Shown piece by piece: positions 12,056-19,005 of a DNA stretch of 64,000 nt. Source of the DNA: Escherichia phage MET-P1-301; the sequence record PV700625; one strand, written 5' to 3'. The translations under genes were made by a program, and so were the position numbers. A model generated the notes under the pieces. The model was given only the letters and a program-made list of their open reading frames with translations, searched no databases and had not been told where the DNA came from. How positions within the stretch are numbered: position 1 is the first letter of the stretch; every line of letters starts with the position of its first letter.

Positions 12056-12118
12056 TGGTTCTCCTGTTTAGTTCATCGTGACAACAATTATACAGCACTC
12101 TGCACAAAATACAAATAA

Positions 12119-12146
12119 AAAGGCCGCCGAAGCAGCCTTTTAAGAA
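12119..12146 (-). terminator. Possible weak terminator hairpin after rIIB
   Basis: Imperfect GC hairpin AGGCCGCCgaaGCAGCCT flanked by A/T runs. Confidence 0.3.
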
Positions 12147-12154
12147 ATTACTTA

Positions 12155-13264
12155 TTAGATTTCACGTTTACGTTGAGAGATAAGTTCACCAGCAGTGCCA
12201 ACGATGACATGCAAAGCTTCAGTCTTACCATCCCATACTTTCAGCACTTTACGTTGATTATCAACGATTGCTGCAACTTCATAACGAGAGGAACGCATCT
12301 TCATATCGTTGTAATCAGTTGGAACAGATACAACATCTCGTGGATGGACACGAACCTTCAGGATGGTATCACCTGAGAAGCAACGAACATAATCCCAAGC
12401 ACCAACATGAAGACCTTGAGAGCAAGTTACGTTACGGTTGTTATCAACCATCCAACGTGGCATCTCTACAATGTTACCTAAATCATTAGGTACTTTGTAG
12501 GTGTGAGAGTCAACCAGCTTGCCTTCACGAGTAGAGACTTTCTTCCAACCAATGATGTAGCCTTCTTCATCAATTTCAACATCAAGGTGAGATACAAATC
12601 CCCAAAGTTGTTCTACAGAATCTTTAGATGGGTTTTCCATCAGTTTTTCGAAGAACATTACAAGTCGTTCAAAACCTTTATCACCAGTTTTCATCATGTG
12701 AAGAATACGGTCAACCAGAGTAGAACGCATCTCAACAGCACCGTAGAAGAGCTTGTCACCTTTGATTGTGATAGCACCCTGAGTGAAGTTTTCGATAGAC
12801 TTACGAATGTTCATCAGTTCAAATGCTTTCTTGAACTCACCTTTCACAACATGAACTACAATTTCTTGATAGTTCGGATGAGTAGACTCAACAATTTCAG
12901 ATTCTGAACCGTAAGTCATAATTACAGAGTCGCCAGTAATCATGTACTCAATCTTGTCATCTTTCTGCATAGCTTCGTGCAGTTTATTTACTGGAGCTTT
13001 CTGTACAGCGTCTTTAACTACCTTTTCAACTGGTTTGTCAGCTTTCTTCTTAAAGGTCTTAGCAACTTGCTTCAAAGTCTTCGTAGCTGGTGTAGAAGCA
13101 ACCTTTTTCTTACCTTTTAAGGTTGCTTCATGACGCTCTACAGCACGACCAACTGAACGGGTTGAAGTATTAAATTTCTGTGCAATAGCTGTTTTAGTCA
13201 GCTTACCTTCTTTAACCAGTTTGTAAATTTCTGCGTCAATCTGTGCTTTAGTTTTAGTAGTCAT
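12155..13264 (-). CDS. rIIB: rIIB-like protein
   Basis: C-terminal two-thirds matches recalled T4 rIIB blocks (LFYGAVEMRSTLVDRIL, ENPSKDSVEQLWGF, TCSQGLHV, KVRVHPRDVVSVPTDYNDMKMR); sits directly downstream of the rIIA-like gene. Confidence 0.8.
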   Translation of the reverse strand: MTTKTKAQIDAEIYKLVKEGKLTKTAIAQKFNTSTRSVGRAVERHEATLKGKKKVASTPATKTLKQVAKTFKKKADKPVEKVVKDAVQKAPVNKLHEAMQKDDKIEYMITGDSVIMTYGSESEIVESTHPNYQEIVVHVVKGEFKKAFELMNIRKSIENFTQGAITIKGDKLFYGAVEMRSTLVDRILHMMKTGDKGFERLVMFFEKLMENPSKDSVEQLWGFVSHLDVEIDEEGYIIGWKKVSTREGKLVDSHTYKVPNDLGNIVEMPRWMVDNNRNVTCSQGLHVGAWDYVRCFSGDTILKVRVHPRDVVSVPTDYNDMKMRSSRYEVAAIVDNQRKVLKVWDGKTEALHVIVGTAGELISQRKREI

Positions 13265-13343: not shown

Positions 13344-15709
13344 TTAATCGTAAACTGTAGTTCCTTCTGGAACACACTTCACATCAAAGCCTAAGAACTT
13401 ACTCACTTCGATGGGTGACACTTTATTCCAATCTAAATGAGAAAGCAAGAAGTTTTCTTGTTTTCTTTTTGAAAGGTAGTTTGTCACCTTAATAACCATA
13501 CGGTCACCAGCTTTCTTAATTTTCTTGTAAAGCTTTGTATCGTTGTCAAGACAGTCTTTCAAAGTTTTCAATACACTAATAGTATAAGTGTATGCAAATG
13601 GTGCAGCAACGTATTGGATTTTACCGAACATTGCCTCTACAGCCTCTTCATTACCTTCTAGGAAGATAGTTTTGTTTGTATCCCGTGAATAGCAATAACC
13701 ACGAGAAATCTTCCTATTATTGAATGTAAAGTTTCTGGCAATAATCCAGCTACTTGTAAGGTCAAGAACACCATTCATATAGATGCGTGTCATATACCTG
13801 TTATGATTAATCCAATGAACATCAGTTAAGCTGTCGTTCAAGAGCTTCTCATCTACTTCAATCCAGTCTTCTGGTATCTTTTTCCAATTTGCTTTTCGGA
13901 AAACATAGACTGTCTTTCCAATAACATTAGCAACTGACTTAGCTACATCTTCTGGGGATGAGCAAAAACATTCACCATCAACTGTGTCACCAATTGCCTT
14001 AATGTAAAGCTGAGGTTCTTCAATTGTGTCTAAGTCCTCTGACACCTCTTTGTAGGAGGCTACACCTTCTGCTGGAACAGCTTTCCAGAGTTTTACAACA
14101 CCTCTTACAGCTTCTTTACGCTGGTAATGGTGTTCCTTATCAGACATTTTCACAATCTTTAACAAGCTTTTATCAAGTTTGTGCAGATTGATTAAGTCAT
14201 CTAACTCTTTTTCAGTCGAGAATACAAAGACAATACCATTGTATCTGTGAAACAGACTTGACTCACTGGCATAGTCTCGACATGCACCACGCAAGATTTG
14301 GTTGCGTCCTACAGTCTTCTCAGTACCATTTTTATTGCGACGGTCATTTATAACAAACAAAAACTGTTCAATTTGGCTTTTACGCATTGCGCCAAAGATA
14401 TTGAACATACTTGCCTCTTGAGTGTAGGAAAGTGCTGTTGCACGAATCTTACTCTCTAAAGAGTTGAACTTGACATAAGCAACTGGGTCATAAAGATAAT
14501 CTACTTTAGGGATGTTGTTTCCGTTCCTATCAACCTTAATATTACCTTTACCGTCACGTTCATAAATGACTGAGCCGTCTTCTGCGTAGATAATTCCACG
14601 ACGAATGTTTAGTAATTCTTCTTCCAGAGAATCAAGCTTAACGCCTCCCCACTCTAACTTTGGACACACAGCATTAAACATCTCTCGTGAGTTCAAACGT
14701 AACTCAGCATAAGCCTGTGCAGCATCCATGAGTGTAGGTTGACTGTTAACTTTCTTGATAACATCCTTTGTAATTGCTTCAGTTATCTTTTAGTAGCCTC
14801 AATGATAACATTTTTTGTCGTGTCATTCATCTGCAATGCTTCACGAGAAGCTGCAATAGCGACTGAACCAATAGGCATGTAGATGTTTACAAGGTCTACG
14901 CTCCTACGGAAAAATTCTGGCAATACTTTGAAGAAATCATCACCAAGTAATGCTTCCATGTTAACAGGGTAGGCAATGTTACCCATCACCACATTAAACT
15001 CTGTCCTGTTACCACTAGAACGCCAGCTTTGCTTATGAATCATGGCATCATAAACACCCTCTTCACGGGCAATGACGTTCATATCTGCTAATACATCGTC
15101 GTACACAATATTACTTTCTGGTTTTACAGCAAAGTATGAGTATACATTACCAGCTTCTTCAAAGAACTTTGAGATACGGTGGTCAGCAACTGCCACACGT
15201 ACAGCTAAACCATTAGGTTCTTTTGTTGGGTTAGTGGTCAGCTTAGTTACTTGAGGAATACCATTCTCAAGATAAACAGAGTACTTATTAACAACACCAT
15301 CAACATAGCTAGATACTGTGAATGACTGAGCAATTGCAAATGGTGACTTTGAGCCGATACCCATTGCACCAATGTAATCATTGGAGTCATTCTTCGTAGA
15401 AGCTCCGTAGTTCAGATACAAACTCATTACTTTGTCATGGGTTAAACCAGTTCCAAAGTCACGGACTTCAAAGTAAGGCTCAAAACGAGTAGGTAAATGC
15501 ACATGGAACGGGATGTTCTCTTTTCCAGCTTCTTTCTGAGCATCTACTGCGTTACATGACAGTTCACGAATCACTGCCCTTTCTTTAAAGGTATATACAC
15601 CAGAACTCAAAAGGCTGAACATCTCAGGTGTCATTGTAATCTGTGCTTGAGACGTCTCTAAAGAAGTTGAACTCTTAATCACTTCTGCGTGGTCATTTAC
15701 CATGCGCAT
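13344..15709 (-). CDS. rIIA: rIIA-like protein (N-terminal GHKL ATPase fold), two ORFs probably joined by a frameshift near 14730-14785
   Basis: 14783-15709 has GHKL-type motifs (RELSCNAVDA, RDFGTGL, YIGAMGIGSKSPF, AIAASREAL) recalled from T4 rIIA; 13344-14729 continues; combined ~780 aa; rIIA-rIIB synteny. Confidence 0.7.
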
Positions 15710-15737
15710 AATACTTTCCTCTTAGTTTACTGTTAAA

Positions 15738-15914
15738 TTACTTATTAAACATTTTACCAGAACCACCACACATAGGGCAACAACCTGCTCTTGTATACCC
15801 TTCTCCGTTACAGTAGTCACACTTCTTGTGTTCTGCAAAGTACTTACAAAGAAGGTAAACAAGGACTGCTACACTACCAAGTGACAGTAAAATTTCTACC
15901 CAATATGCTTGCAT
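15738..15914 (-). CDS. small membrane protein with C-terminal zinc-finger-like repeat (58 aa)
   Basis: Hand-translated: MQAYWVEILLSLGSVAVLVYLLCKYF...CDYCNGEG...CPMCGGSG. Confidence 0.4.
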   Translation of the reverse strand: MQAYWVEILLSLGSVAVLVYLLCKYFAEHKKCDYCNGEGYTRAGCCPMCGGSGKMFNK

Positions 15915-15924
15915 GACTCACCTC

Positions 15925-16230
15925 TCATGTTTTTGTAAAGGATAAAGCTTCTGTCATGGACGATACTTGTAGATACTGCAAAGTTACTTTCAAGCATCTG
16001 TTTGTTTGGATTGTAGAAGCTTTCTTTAAACTCGTCAAGTGCAAATTGGTGATTGTCTGGAAGACCTTTACACACACCTTTATTGTGATTGCTGCTGCAA
16101 TCTTCCCAGTCAGTTCTTCTTTAGCTGCTACTAAGATTTTGTTGAGGAACTTATGACCATTTTCAGGCTTCTTGATGTTCTCCCAACGCTCTTCTAAGAC
16201 AATGTTGATGTTCATCTCTTTGATTTTCAT
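15925..16230 (-). CDS. hypothetical protein, possibly frameshifted
   Basis: ORF between nadV and the zinc-finger ORF. Confidence 0.35.
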   Translation of the reverse strand: MKIKEMNINIVLEERWENIKKPENGHKFLNKILVAAKEELTGKIAAAITIKVCVKVFQTITNLHLTSLKKASTIQTNRCLKVTLQYLQVSSMTEALSFTKT

Positions 16231-16244
16231 AATTTTCTCCAGAA

Positions 16245-16269
16245 ATTAAAAAGGCTCCCGTAGGAGCCT
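16245..16269 (-). terminator. Intrinsic terminator downstream of nadV
   Basis: AGGCTCCcgtaGGAGCCT followed on the minus strand by TTTTTAATTT. Confidence 0.6.
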
Positions 16270-16283
16270 ATTATCATATACTT

Positions 16284-18064
16284 TTAAAGCTGCTTGTCAA
16301 TATTATTTCGAATATCGCCAAGAGTTGTGTAGCCGAACTGCTCAGAGTCGCTAAAGACTAAACGTAAAGCACAAGCTGGATGCTCAAGTGCATCTGCAAA
16401 ACTCTGGAATCCATAGCCATCTACAGCTTTCAGATTCTCACCATCCCACATAGGGGCTACACCACCAAAAGCGGACTTCTTAATACCACTATCTGTTTTA
16501 GGGTCTTTTGCAAGCATAATCTCTTTACCACCAATGCTTGCAAGAGTTGCTTTGACAGCAAATGCAAAGGTGTCACGAGTCATGTACTGGTAAGTGTAAG
16601 AACCTACACCAAACACTACGTTAGAGCTTGCAAAACCCATTTCATACAAACGCTTCAGGATTTCGTTTGCACGTTCCAACGTGATAGAGTCACCATAGAT
16701 AAGGCCAATGTGCTCATCCAGTACCTTAAACCCTTTAGAGTTGATAGTTCCTCCAAAGATGTTATACAGGGTCTTAATGGCCCCATCAATCTCTGCTACA
16801 GGACGTGTTACAACGTTTGCAGAACCAACCATATAAGCATTTTTCAACATCACTGTATCAGCAACTTCAAAGTCTTCTCTGTCAACAACCATTTCGTAGC
16901 CTTCTGACAGTAGCCATCCAGCAATACCATAGTTGATGTTTTCAAGCTTCATGTTCAGAACAGCATTCAACATTGTGTCACTGGCTTCCAGCTTGCTTAG
17001 GTGCTCGTAATAAGCCTTCTTAGCACATTCTAAGTGGATTGCTTTATAACCTGTGACAATATGTACAGGGTCTCCAGAGTCAGGACGAATTACCAGTTTG
17101 CCATCACGTTCCATAATTTCTTTACGAAGTGCTGGTAAAATTTCTGACACAGTTCTCCAGAAGTTATAAGTGTCTGAAACAACACTTGCAATGCCAGTTG
17201 GGTAAGTTTCTGTTAAGAAACGACGGAAGGTTTGTAACTCACCTTTAAAGCGTCTTTCTTCTTCAATCAACTCATTACCACCTTCCCAAGCAATGTTTGC
17301 ACACATTACAGAGTGCTCAGTGGCTGGTACAGAACTACCAATATCAGAAATTGGGTAAGACTGTCCATAGATTCGTTTAGCCGTATACACAGCAGGAAAG
17401 CTATCAGTTCCTTTAAAGCTTGTTAAGTGACCTACAGCATTAAATGCGTCATCGGTAAAGCCGGACATACCACGCATAGCAAAGTCATGGCACTGATAAG
17501 GTAAATGTAATTCATTGTCGCAAGTAAGGTCAGCCCACTTCTTACAGATACGTTTGTAGTGCAATGCAATAGTCGCAATAGTGCAAGCCTTCCAAATCTC
17601 AGCAGAGAAAGCATCTTCCAGATAACCTGCTACCCAATGGAATCCTGAAACAGTGTTCTGGAAGACAATCATTGGGACACGCATCGGAACAACTGTGCCT
17701 TCTTCTACAGCGTATACTTCGACTGGCAGATAACCTAAGTCGTGAAGTGCTTCCCAATGCTCTCGACCAATAGCATCTTTGCCCAGAACACCGTTCATGA
17801 CTTCTAAGATTTCGTCAATTGCTTCTTTTTATCACGTTCAAAGAAAGTGGCATTCCAGTGGTCTATCAAGTAATCTTTAACAAAACGTTGAATACCAAAA
17901 GCTACTACACCGTCAATTGCTAAGGGGCTGTTAAACCATTTATCACTACGTGGTGTCAGGTTGAACATCAAGTACTCTGTTGCGCTAGGATACTGGTAAA
18001 CATGACCAGATTTGTAAGCATCTGCATTTAAACCTGCTGGTACTGCATAAAGTGATTTAGTCAT
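16284..18064 (-). CDS. nadV: Nicotinamide phosphoribosyltransferase (NadV/NAMPT), interrupted by an apparent frameshift at 17798-17830
   Basis: ORFs 17804-18064 and 16284-17798 together read as a full-length NAMPT-like protein (~590 aa); the junction sits in an A5 run (gataaaaagaag). Confidence 0.8.
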
Positions 18065-18109: not shown

Positions 18110-19005
18110 TTAATCAAGGTTTGCTACAGTAACTTGGCTATAATGTGTTAAGCCACGGTCTTTAGCTTCTCCTAAAGAGTTTGTAGTGTAGATATGGTCG
18201 ATACCATTGTCAAGAAGGTTTTCAACATCTTTAGAGAAGATACCATGTGTTACATAGAGTTCCACACGTTTTGCACCCACTTCACGAAGATGTTTAGCTG
18301 CTTCTATGAAGGTTCGACCACCATCACAGATATCATCCAGAATCATGACGGTTTTATCTGTCAAATCAACATCATCAAGGATTCGCATACCAGTAATTTC
18401 ACCAGTCTTAAGGTTGCGTACTTTAGACATTGTGATGTATGGTTTATCCACCTCTTTAGCGGTCTCTGCAACCTTCTTAGCAGCACCTGCATCTGGGGCT
18501 ACTAAGTAATCAACCAGTGGGTCATTTGCATAGTGGACTGCAATCTCCTTTGAGGAATACTCTGGAAGCAGTTAAACAGGTTATCTGGAACGTAACTGTG
18601 AGGGTCAACTGCACAGACTGCACCAAATCCCATTGCATTTACCTGTTTAGCAAAAACCTTTAAAGCTGCTGCGTCGCCTTTAAACATGTGACGGTCATAT
18701 CGTGCATTTGGTAAGTAGTAAAAGATGACAGTCTTTAAAGCATAATCATGAGGAATTAAATCATCAATTGCTTCTTTAGCAAGTGCCACAGCAAACAAAG
18801 TGTCCTTATCATAACCTTTTACAATCATAATCACATTGTTGATGGATGATGCTGCATAAGCGGTGAAATCAACAAACTCTGGTGAAAAGTGTCCACCAAT
18901 CTCACCAGAAGGGAATTGGATGATGTTAAACTCTTCTTCATGAGTCCCTTTAGTTGGTGAATGAACTGTAACACGGATAGATGTCTTCATAGTTTTCTCT
19001 CTCAA
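18110..19005 (-). CDS. prs: Ribose-phosphate pyrophosphokinase (PRPP synthetase), interrupted by an apparent frameshift near 18450-18560
   Basis: N-terminal piece has FPSGE and YLPNARYDRH; C-terminal piece has the PRPP-binding loop VMILDDICDGGRT. Confidence 0.75.

Follow-up and report, generated by a model that had tools for sequence, protein, structure and literature searches.

What is encoded directly upstream of rIIA in this phage, and what might a product of only 58 residues do there? The stretch of DNA that we analyzed, 64,000 nucleotides from Escherichia phage MET-P1-301 (hereafter, the window), belongs to a Felixounavirus genome (Ounavirinae), and the 3.2 kb around the locus are ~96% identical to many genomes of that genus, including those of ECML-1, XTG1, KhF2 and typing phage 1. 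An earlier note on this DNA had singled out a 58-aa ORF in which a transmembrane (TM) helix is followed by two CxxCxGxG units, a description that the ORF list, a hydropathy calculation and a motif scan confirmed. The ORF, here called ORF58, is on the minus strand (the earlier note named no strand) and its 58 codons from the ATG translate to MQAYWVEILLSLGSVAVLVYLLCKYFAEHKKCDYCNGEGYTRAGCCPMCGGSGKMFNK. The coordinates of ORF58 and of the features discussed below are collected in Table 1. Its placement between rIIA and nadV was correct in position, but a further ORF of 111 aa in relatives (ORF111, phrog_4262) separates it from nadV.

Table 1. Positions in the window of ORF58, its parts and the elements that surround it.
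Feature	Position	Strand	Basis
ORF58 CDS (58 aa, ATG start; = Bas63 gp83, TP1 gp080, XTG1 ANZ52159; phrog_3931)	15738..15914	minus	ORF list, profile match, annotated orthologues, pN/pS
Shine-Dalgarno sequence GAGGTGA, 3 nt 5' of the ORF58 ATG, inside the 3' end of the upstream ORF	15918..15924	minus	read off the sequence
ORF58/ORF111 overlap, 19 nt, dual-coding	15896..15914	minus	identical overlap annotated in relatives
Predicted single hydrophobic TM helix, ORF58 codons 5-23, WVEILLSLGSVAVLVYLLC; L10, S11 and G13 invariant among Ounavirinae	15846..15902	minus	hydropathy, AlphaFold2, invariant columns
CxxCxGxG-x6-CPxCxGxGK, ORF58 codons 32-54, predicted single Zn(Cys)4 site C32/C35/C46/C49	15753..15821	minus	motif scan, invariance, profile, Foldseek
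CDYCNGEG motif of ORF58	15798-15821	minus	motif scan
CPMCGGSG motif of ORF58	15756-15779	minus	motif scan
ORF111 (phrog_4262, 111 aa in relatives), upstream of ORF58; broken here by a 1-nt homopolymer deletion at 16066-16069	15896..16230	minus	
rIIA, ATG 28 nt 3' of the ORF58 stop; split here by a homopolymer deletion at 14787-14791	13344..15709	minus	
rIIB	12155..13264	minus	
Terminator-like hairpin after rIIB	12141..12118		consensus scan
Sigma-70-like promoter candidate TTGACA-16-TATGAT (11/12), nadV/ORF111 spacer	16273..16300	minus	consensus scan only
Terminator-like hairpin, nadV/ORF111 spacer	16269..16252		consensus scan

The ORF had been described as unannotated, which holds for the track of the earlier reader only and was an artefact of the length cut-off applied to it; many GenBank records of related phages carry an annotation for the gene, which is already catalogued as phrog_3931. 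ORF58 is matched from end to end by the profile of that family (114 bits, E=4e-33), its residues 1-58 falling on positions 1-59 of the 59 in the profile. The labels given to orthologues include "putative membrane protein, similar to Felix 01 Felix01p243" for XTG1 ANZ52159, "hypothetical protein" for TP1 gp080 and "putative membrane protein" for bas63_0083 (gp83) of Bas63, which is identical to ORF58 at 55 of the 58 positions, and within Felixounavirus the identity is 89-100%. A zinc-knuckle motif is not mentioned in the record annotations of the orthologues that we inspected. In the literature we found neither a characterization of the protein nor an RNA-seq or Ribo-seq study of a Felixounavirus.

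Searches by tblastn were performed with both ORF58 and rIIA. ORF58 was identified in 257 phage records, 256 of them with a coverage of at least 80%, and all 257 fell within the clade of Felixounavirus, Mooglevirus and Suspvirus. Some 214 records at identities of at least 80% represented Felixounavirus, and ~44 had identities of 46-60%, those inspected being Mooglevirus (e.g., Silverhawkium and Moogle) and Suspvirus (e.g., PC79-13 and EP1). With rIIA, exactly 257 records were obtained at 60% identity or more, equal to the number for ORF58. Judged by these counts, ORF58 belongs to the core genes of the clade. Metagenomic relatives reach down to 43% identity (P0012) and retain the neighbors prs, nadV, the 111-aa ORF, ORF58, rIIA and rIIB. 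When 1.84 billion representatives were searched exhaustively with phmmer, the full-length relatives were of Ounavirinae type only, apart from a TM and knuckle protein of 53 aa (P0024), whose contig, at 1.3 kb, does not allow interpretation. Beyond these, the phmmer matches were multi-repeat CxxCxGxG proteins and genuine DnaJ proteins (E ~9e-4 to 1e-3), and in the phmmer and the profile word-index searches alike the matches past the full-length relatives dissolved into generic CxxCxGxG proteins.

Two proteins that occupy the equivalent place in more distant phages were considered as homologues and rejected. T4 rIIA.1, in an analogous position, is an unrelated Cys-free soluble protein of 67 aa, and the ORF upstream of rIIA in LPML1 (a "Listeria phage" and distant member of the Ounavirinae, with an rIIA 34% identical) encodes an unrelated soluble protein of 52 aa. 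The presence of an unrelated ORF at this position in LPML1 indicates that the ORF58 family is limited to the clade.

ORF58 is a real gene. It was intact in 32 of 32 related loci, which comprised 29 distinct nucleotide sequences and 20 distinct proteins, and the pN/pS ratios (Nei-Gojobori) were 0.10 in Felixounavirus and 0.15 in each of Mooglevirus and Suspvirus; outside the overlap region the ratio was 0.106. In comparisons between genera, synonymous sites are saturated. The codons for the invariant Cys and Gly residues vary synonymously (TGT/TGC; GGA/GGT/GGG), from which we conclude that selection acts on the protein. Purine tracts resembling a Shine-Dalgarno sequence (GAGAGGTGAG, TGGAGA and TAGGAGA) precede the ATG at equal distance in all three genera. 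The earlier note would have counted weak conservation among relatives against its proposal, and the intact loci, the 257 phage records and the purifying selection show the opposite. Short ORFs are plentiful, with 68 of at least 30 aa within 8 kb, and ORF58 might on that ground be dismissed as a product of chance, or as a non-coding element left open by accident. We consider this explanation excluded for practical purposes, based on the pN/pS of ~0.1 together with synonymous substitutions in the codons of invariant Cys and Gly residues, a reading frame intact at all loci down to 43% identity, the retained Shine-Dalgarno sequence and the behavior of shuffled DNA: a six-frame scan of the window gave CxxCxGxG only at the two units of ORF58, whereas 200 shuffles of the window gave a mean of 0.17 single motifs and no paired motif at all.

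One part of the gene requires a more careful reading. In codons 1-7 synonymous variation is suppressed (pS of 0.013 versus 0.26 elsewhere), and in each lineage these codons share exactly 19 nt with the 3' end of the ORF upstream. As such, the conservation of the N-terminus (MQxYWxE) may be partly a consequence of dual coding with ORF111 and not of function. The overlap probably also results in translational coupling of ORF58 to ORF111.

Within the clade, down to 43% identity, ORF58 is always directly upstream of rIIA, and both the gene order upstream of rIIA and the 19-nt overlap with ORF111 are kept in XTG1, TP1, Silverhawkium, PC79-13, Bas63 and a Logan contig (L038). The layout of the candidate promoter and the terminator-like hairpins that bracket ORF111, ORF58, rIIA and rIIB suggests that these four genes form one early transcription unit, read from the candidate promoter. 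The upstream neighbors were also considered as a clue to function and were set aside, there being no Pfam match for phrog_4262 or phrog_20372. Compared with each relative examined, the window lacks a single base in homopolymer runs of rIIA (14787-14791), ORF111 (16066-16069), nadV (17825-17831) and prs (18548-18551), and each of these genes is split as a result. We do not interpret these deletions as pseudogenization or programmed frameshifting because the pattern is typical of homopolymer under-calling in assembly. ORF58 is unaffected by such deletions.

Within the protein, a single TM helix at approximately residues 5-23 was predicted by hydropathy and AlphaFold2, as the earlier note had anticipated. 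The Kyte-Doolittle profile (15-residue window) peaks at 2.56 over residues 8-22, and the AlphaFold2 model has a helix at residues 4-28. There is no Lys or Arg before the helix; the N-terminus is short and acidic (MQxYWxE) with an invariant E7, K24 directly follows the helix in all members except P0014 and P0024, and lysines abound in the C-terminal part of the family members, whose tails include KMFNK, KKFKK and KKHN. Based on this charge bias and the positive-inside rule, an orientation with the N-terminus outside and the C-terminus in the cytoplasm (Nout-Cin) is favored. The positive-inside signal is weak in the Mooglevirus and Suspvirus proteins, in which K24 is the only such residue near the helix, and in P0014 the helix has no flanking Lys or Arg. 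A Zn(Cys)4 site would be expected in the reducing cytoplasm, the side on which the favored orientation would place the cysteines.

The remainder of ORF58 is dominated by the paired motif. Among nine divergent proteins of Ounavirinae type, the invariant residues in and around the helix are M1, Q2, Y4, W5, E7, L10, S11, G13, L22 and K24, and those of the knuckle are C32, C35, G37, G39, C46, P47, C49, G51 and G53. When the divergent P0014 and the most distant relative, P0024, were added, E7, S11 and the whole Cys/Gly/Pro signature of the knuckle stayed invariant. A further cysteine, C45, lies beside C46 and is replaced by Pro in P0011, and therefore the likely metal ligands are C32, C35, C46 and C49; zinc binding by these four residues is predicted from the sequence pattern. 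In the AlphaFold2 model (mean pLDDT of 71) the helix is confident and the knuckle moderately so (pLDDT 61-70).

The motif had been called "DnaJ-like", a term that stands for the motif and the mini-fold and fails for the family, since all family scores were below the curated cut-offs. The best Pfam match was DUF5351/YuiA (PF17302; 18.6 versus a cut-off of 27 bits, E=0.0023, residues 32-54), followed by DnaJ_CXXCXGXG (PF00684; 17.1 versus 32.7 bits, E=0.0065) and, lower, Anti-TRAP (PF15777; 9.3 versus 32 bits). Scores were likewise below the cut-offs for DnaJ_bact (TIGR02349; 17.3 versus 377 bits) and RtpA (NF058604; 11 versus 65 bits), and the PADLOC defence models gave no family at E <=1. Assignment of ORF58 to a curated family was consequently rejected, the Pfam and NCBIfam matches being sub-threshold and PADLOC giving none. 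The domain is best described, from sequence and model, as a predicted single-zinc knuckle of the DnaJ/Anti-TRAP type that is outside the curated DnaJ, Anti-TRAP and YuiA families.

Comparison with proteins of known structure supported this description. Against the PDB, a profile of four family members identified the E. coli DnaJ Cys-rich domain (1EXK, E=1.2e-4), and the knuckle aligns without gaps and with identical spacing to DnaJ motifs 3 and 4. The relatedness to the DnaJ Cys-rich domain (PF00684, 1EXK) is at the level of the shared CxxCxGxG motif only: DnaJ has four motifs and two zinc sites, whereas ORF58 has two motifs and, by prediction, one site, and it is without the J domain, the G/F region and the C-terminal substrate-binding domain of DnaJ. 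Searches of Pfam and NCBIfam gave no match in ORF58 to a J domain (HPD motif). A Foldseek search of the AlphaFold2 model against the PDB placed Anti-TRAP first (rmsd of 1.7 A over 28 columns, 36% identity, probability 0.91, E=0.26) and DnaJ Cys-rich domains next; with a best value of 0.26 the E-values are not significant, owing to the tiny size of the domain. Anti-TRAP (RtpA of Bacillus; PDB 2BX9/3LCZ/3LD0) is like ORF58 a miniprotein of ~55 aa with one CxxC-x10-CxxC knuckle made from two DnaJ-type motifs. ORF58 residues 31-53 align without gaps to residues 11-33 of 2BX9, which sets C32, C35, C46 and C49 on Anti-TRAP Cys12, 15, 26 and 29, which we take to be its four zinc ligands. The two proteins differ in that Anti-TRAP is soluble and has a C-terminal helix for trimer/dodecamer assembly, whereas the N-terminal TM helix is the sole helix of ORF58 and only four residues follow its knuckle. 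TRAP, the target of Anti-TRAP, is not known from enterobacteria.

Similar motifs occur in other settings. The YuiA-type protein P0035 has a comparable layout (KCDYCxGKG...CPCCGGTGKK), but YuiA-type proteins have no TM helix. DNA polymerases of HMO-2011-type phages carry a partial DnaJ central domain with two CXXCXGXG motifs, amounting to one half of the DnaJ domain (PMC9038755). These motifs form an insertion in the polymerase, whereas those of ORF58 are in a free membrane miniprotein. A matching architecture is seen in the Arabidopsis plastid protein FIP, in which a membrane anchor precedes a C4 zinc finger made of two CXXCXGXG repeats, a J domain is missing, and the membrane protease FtsH5 is bound (PMC5915565). 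The match of ORF58 to FIP and related proteins such as CYO1 is one of architecture; these plastid proteins are eukaryotic, larger and have a transit peptide. The likeness between FIP and ORF58 may be convergent.

The earlier note suggested that ORF58 could act as a host-chaperone or membrane-targeting effector. The only functional data that bear on its role come from PhageMaP, a genome-wide gene disruption study in the Felixounavirus Bas63 (bioRxiv 10.1101/2024.10.10.617714), in which a fitness score <0 denotes an essential gene. The scores of g83, the ORF58 orthologue, were read for five of the conditions, with three replicates each: S17-1 (0.25, 0.11, 0.48), MG1655 (1.27, -0.07, -0.17), TerY-P (0.10, 0.51, 1.16), AVAST type 4 (0.39, 0.66, 0.88) and QatABCD (0.77, 0.66, 0.81). 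In view of the fact that these scores are approximately zero or positive in all five conditions, the orthologue is dispensable in the laboratory to the extent covered by those five. On QatABCD, rIIA (g84; -1.26, -1.30, -1.61) and rIIB (g85; -1.05, -2.46, -2.45) were both needed, which the authors confirmed by a 10^4-10^5-fold fall in plating efficiency (10.1101/2024.10.10.617714). Since g83 was neutral there, rIIA/B do not require it as a partner for the single rII-dependent phenotype tested in those data. The main text of the PhageMaP paper never names g83 as a counter or trigger. Pooled screens may hide defects via trans-complementation, as its authors noted for T7 (10.1101/2024.10.10.617714).

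Taken together, we think it somewhat probable that ORF58 is an early accessory protein, bitopic in the inner membrane, with a cytoplasmic Zn(Cys)4 knuckle that binds another protein. It would be expressed early, co-transcribed and translationally coupled with ORF111 and rIIA/rIIB, and inserted with its N-terminus in the periplasm, residues 5-23 across the inner membrane and the Lys-rich C-terminal 35 residues in the cytoplasm. C32, C35, C46 and C49 would fold round one zinc ion to give a knuckle of the DnaJ/Anti-TRAP type. Through this knuckle, and possibly also through the face of the helix that carries the conserved S11-x-G13, the membrane-tethered protein would bind a partner of host or phage origin on the cytoplasmic side of the inner membrane and inhibit, hold or relocalize it. 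Such a role would be accessory and condition-dependent and not part of core replication. By analogy, the mode of action may resemble that of soluble Anti-TRAP, in which the same knuckle blocks TRAP, and FIP, through its binding of FtsH5, offers a second analogy for membrane-tethered binding.

Other roles were weighed against this proposal and rank, in falling likelihood, as a subunit of the rII system, a chaperone or redox protein, a lysis or exclusion peptide and, last, the chance ORF dealt with above. The proximity to rIIA makes it conceivable that ORF58 is a small third subunit or assembly factor that anchors or organizes the rIIA/rIIB counter-defence module at the inner membrane. Supporting this idea is that ORF58 invariably precedes rIIA, both in the three genera and in the 43%-identical metagenomic relative, is in the same putative transcription unit as rIIA/rIIB, and is one-to-one with the rIIA of the clade type at the level of counts (257 versus 257 records). 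However, in the QatABCD data rIIA and rIIB were needed and g83 was not (10.1101/2024.10.10.617714), and the proteins at the analogous position in T4 (rIIA.1) and LPML1 (52 aa) are soluble and unrelated. As neither of those phages has an ORF58 homologue at rIIA, rIIA/rIIB evidently work elsewhere without such a partner, and we consider a subunit role unlikely, if the least unlikely of the four.

A holdase or thiol-redox role has been proposed for the zinc centers of DnaJ and for J-domain-less plastid proteins that combine a TM segment with CxxCxGxG motifs (FIP and CYO1), and ORF58 could by extension be a membrane-bound chaperone (holdase) or a thiol-disulfide oxidoreductase for membrane proteins. 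The match in architecture to FIP, an FtsH5 binder (PMC5915565), the sequence relatedness to the DnaJ Cys-rich domain and the additional conserved C45 beside the ligand C46 are consistent with this. Weighing against it, a single knuckle of 23 residues offers little surface for generic substrates, the likeness to FIP is architectural only, and disruption of g83 gave no phenotype in the five PhageMaP conditions; such an activity thus appears rather improbable. We give even less credence to a lysis-timing, holin-like or superinfection-exclusion peptide, in which the Cys domain would be periplasmic and disulfide-bonded and the topology the opposite of that favored here. It is true that ORF58 is a small single-pass membrane protein that adjoins the classical "rapid lysis" genes, and that some distant miniproteins of the form CxxCxGxGK...CPxCGGTGKK (P0036, P0038 and P0052) have lipoprotein-type signals and are probably exported. 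ORF58, however, has no positive N-region, signal-peptidase site or lipobox, and its charge bias favors Nout-Cin. Furthermore, the Bas63 genes that PhageMaP labels as endolysin, holin and spanin (g18/g123, g29/g153 and g89/g90) do not adjoin g83, and in the data of that study disruption of g83 leaves fitness unchanged (10.1101/2024.10.10.617714).

A bolder reading can be formulated, to which we assign a small probability. ORF58 may represent a new type of effector, a membrane-tethered knuckle like that of Anti-TRAP, acting either as a third rII operon component that is hidden and specific to certain conditions or as an early catcher of a host factor in or near the inner membrane, such as an FtsH-type protease or a chaperone. 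If true, this would account for the retention, by every member of the three genera, of a gene that the phage can do without in the laboratory.

Taken by itself, the result carries little weight: the gene had already been catalogued (phrog_3931, "putative membrane protein"), laboratory screens show that the phage can dispense with it, and the zinc-knuckle motif is a familiar one. What seems to be new is the recognition of phrog_3931 as a membrane-anchored knuckle of the Anti-TRAP/DnaJ type that is fixed upstream of rIIA. Phage early proteins that are small protein-binding modules tethered to the membrane have received little study as a class, and phages of the genus Felixounavirus serve in the biocontrol and diagnostics of Salmonella and E. 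coli. If a specific host partner exists, ORF58 would be one more phage miniprotein inhibitor, and recognition of the knuckle provides a testable handle on a gene fixed beside the still enigmatic rII locus.

The 111-aa ORF (phrog_4262) that lies between nadV and the gene of the 58-aa miniprotein overlaps the latter by exactly 19 nt in every lineage, across the six loci L001 (XTG1), L002 (TP1), L003, L004, L037 and L038 (a Logan metagenomic contig). Within the miniprotein gene, codon 6 is NTA without exception and the next base is G, so that together they form the TAG stop of the upstream 111-aa ORF, and synonymous variation is close to zero throughout codons 1-7.

Relative to all four relatives aligned, the window has lost single bases in A/T homopolymer runs. 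Four genes are broken by such deletions: rIIA, which is split into ORFs of 308 and 461 aa, nadV (86 and 504 aa), prs (167 and 113 aa) and the 111-aa phrog_4262 ORF. These losses look like under-calling during assembly rather than biology. Separately, four database proteins of 63 aa each (P0003, P0005, P0006 and P0013) consist of the miniprotein N-terminus fused to the adjoining reading frame, with a C-terminal end of ...VVALCVVVLVKCLISNLTVN, and they therefore reflect indel errors within the miniprotein gene in other public assemblies.

Coordinates of features in the window and in related loci
Feature	Locus	Position	Strand	Remark
Overlap of 111-aa ORF with miniprotein gene	window	15896-15914	-	
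Fusion region of the 63-aa proteins	window	15722..15862	-	
Deletion sites	window	12116-12121, 14787-14791, 16066-16069, 17825-17831, 18548-18551, 19802		homopolymer runs
Promoter candidate and terminator-like hairpin	window	16252-16300	-	
114-aa phrog_20372 ORF	L002	4539-4883		TP1 gp078
Annotated "attP", 11 bp	L001	8091-8101		downstream of prs

nadV and the 111-aa ORF are separated by a spacer of 53 nt, which holds both a GC-rich terminator-like hairpin and, directly adjoining it, a sigma-70 promoter candidate of near-consensus sequence (TTGACA-16-TATGAT). In some Felixounavirus genomes a further ORF of 114 aa (phrog_20372) lies between these same two genes, whereas the window and XTG1 lack it; its presence or absence is an insertion/deletion polymorphism of ~350 bp that cuts the megablast match in two. 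The GenBank record of XTG1, a virulent phage, also includes an "attP" misc_recomb feature.

Among the public records, OK283618.1 is named "Listeria phage LPML1" yet is classified in the Ounavirinae; its rIIA is full-length and 34% identical to that of Felixounavirus, and the Listeria host label looks doubtful. Felixounavirus sequence was also present in "Campylobacter phage A132" records and in one "Staphylococcus" record.

In an exhaustive search with the miniprotein, the top matches outside its family were uncharacterised proteins of 350-540 aa (P0015, P0016 and similar), in which an N-terminal HNH-like region is followed by 5-7 tandem CPLCxGxG...CPxCGGxG units separated by acidic linkers of ~30 residues. 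Small metagenomic proteins (P0036, P0038 and P0052) were also identified that have a lipoprotein-type signal (e.g., LIGC or ASGC) and, C-terminal to it, a CxNCxGTGK...CPxCGGTGKK knuckle. This pairing of signal and knuckle implies that some DnaJ-type knuckles may be exported.
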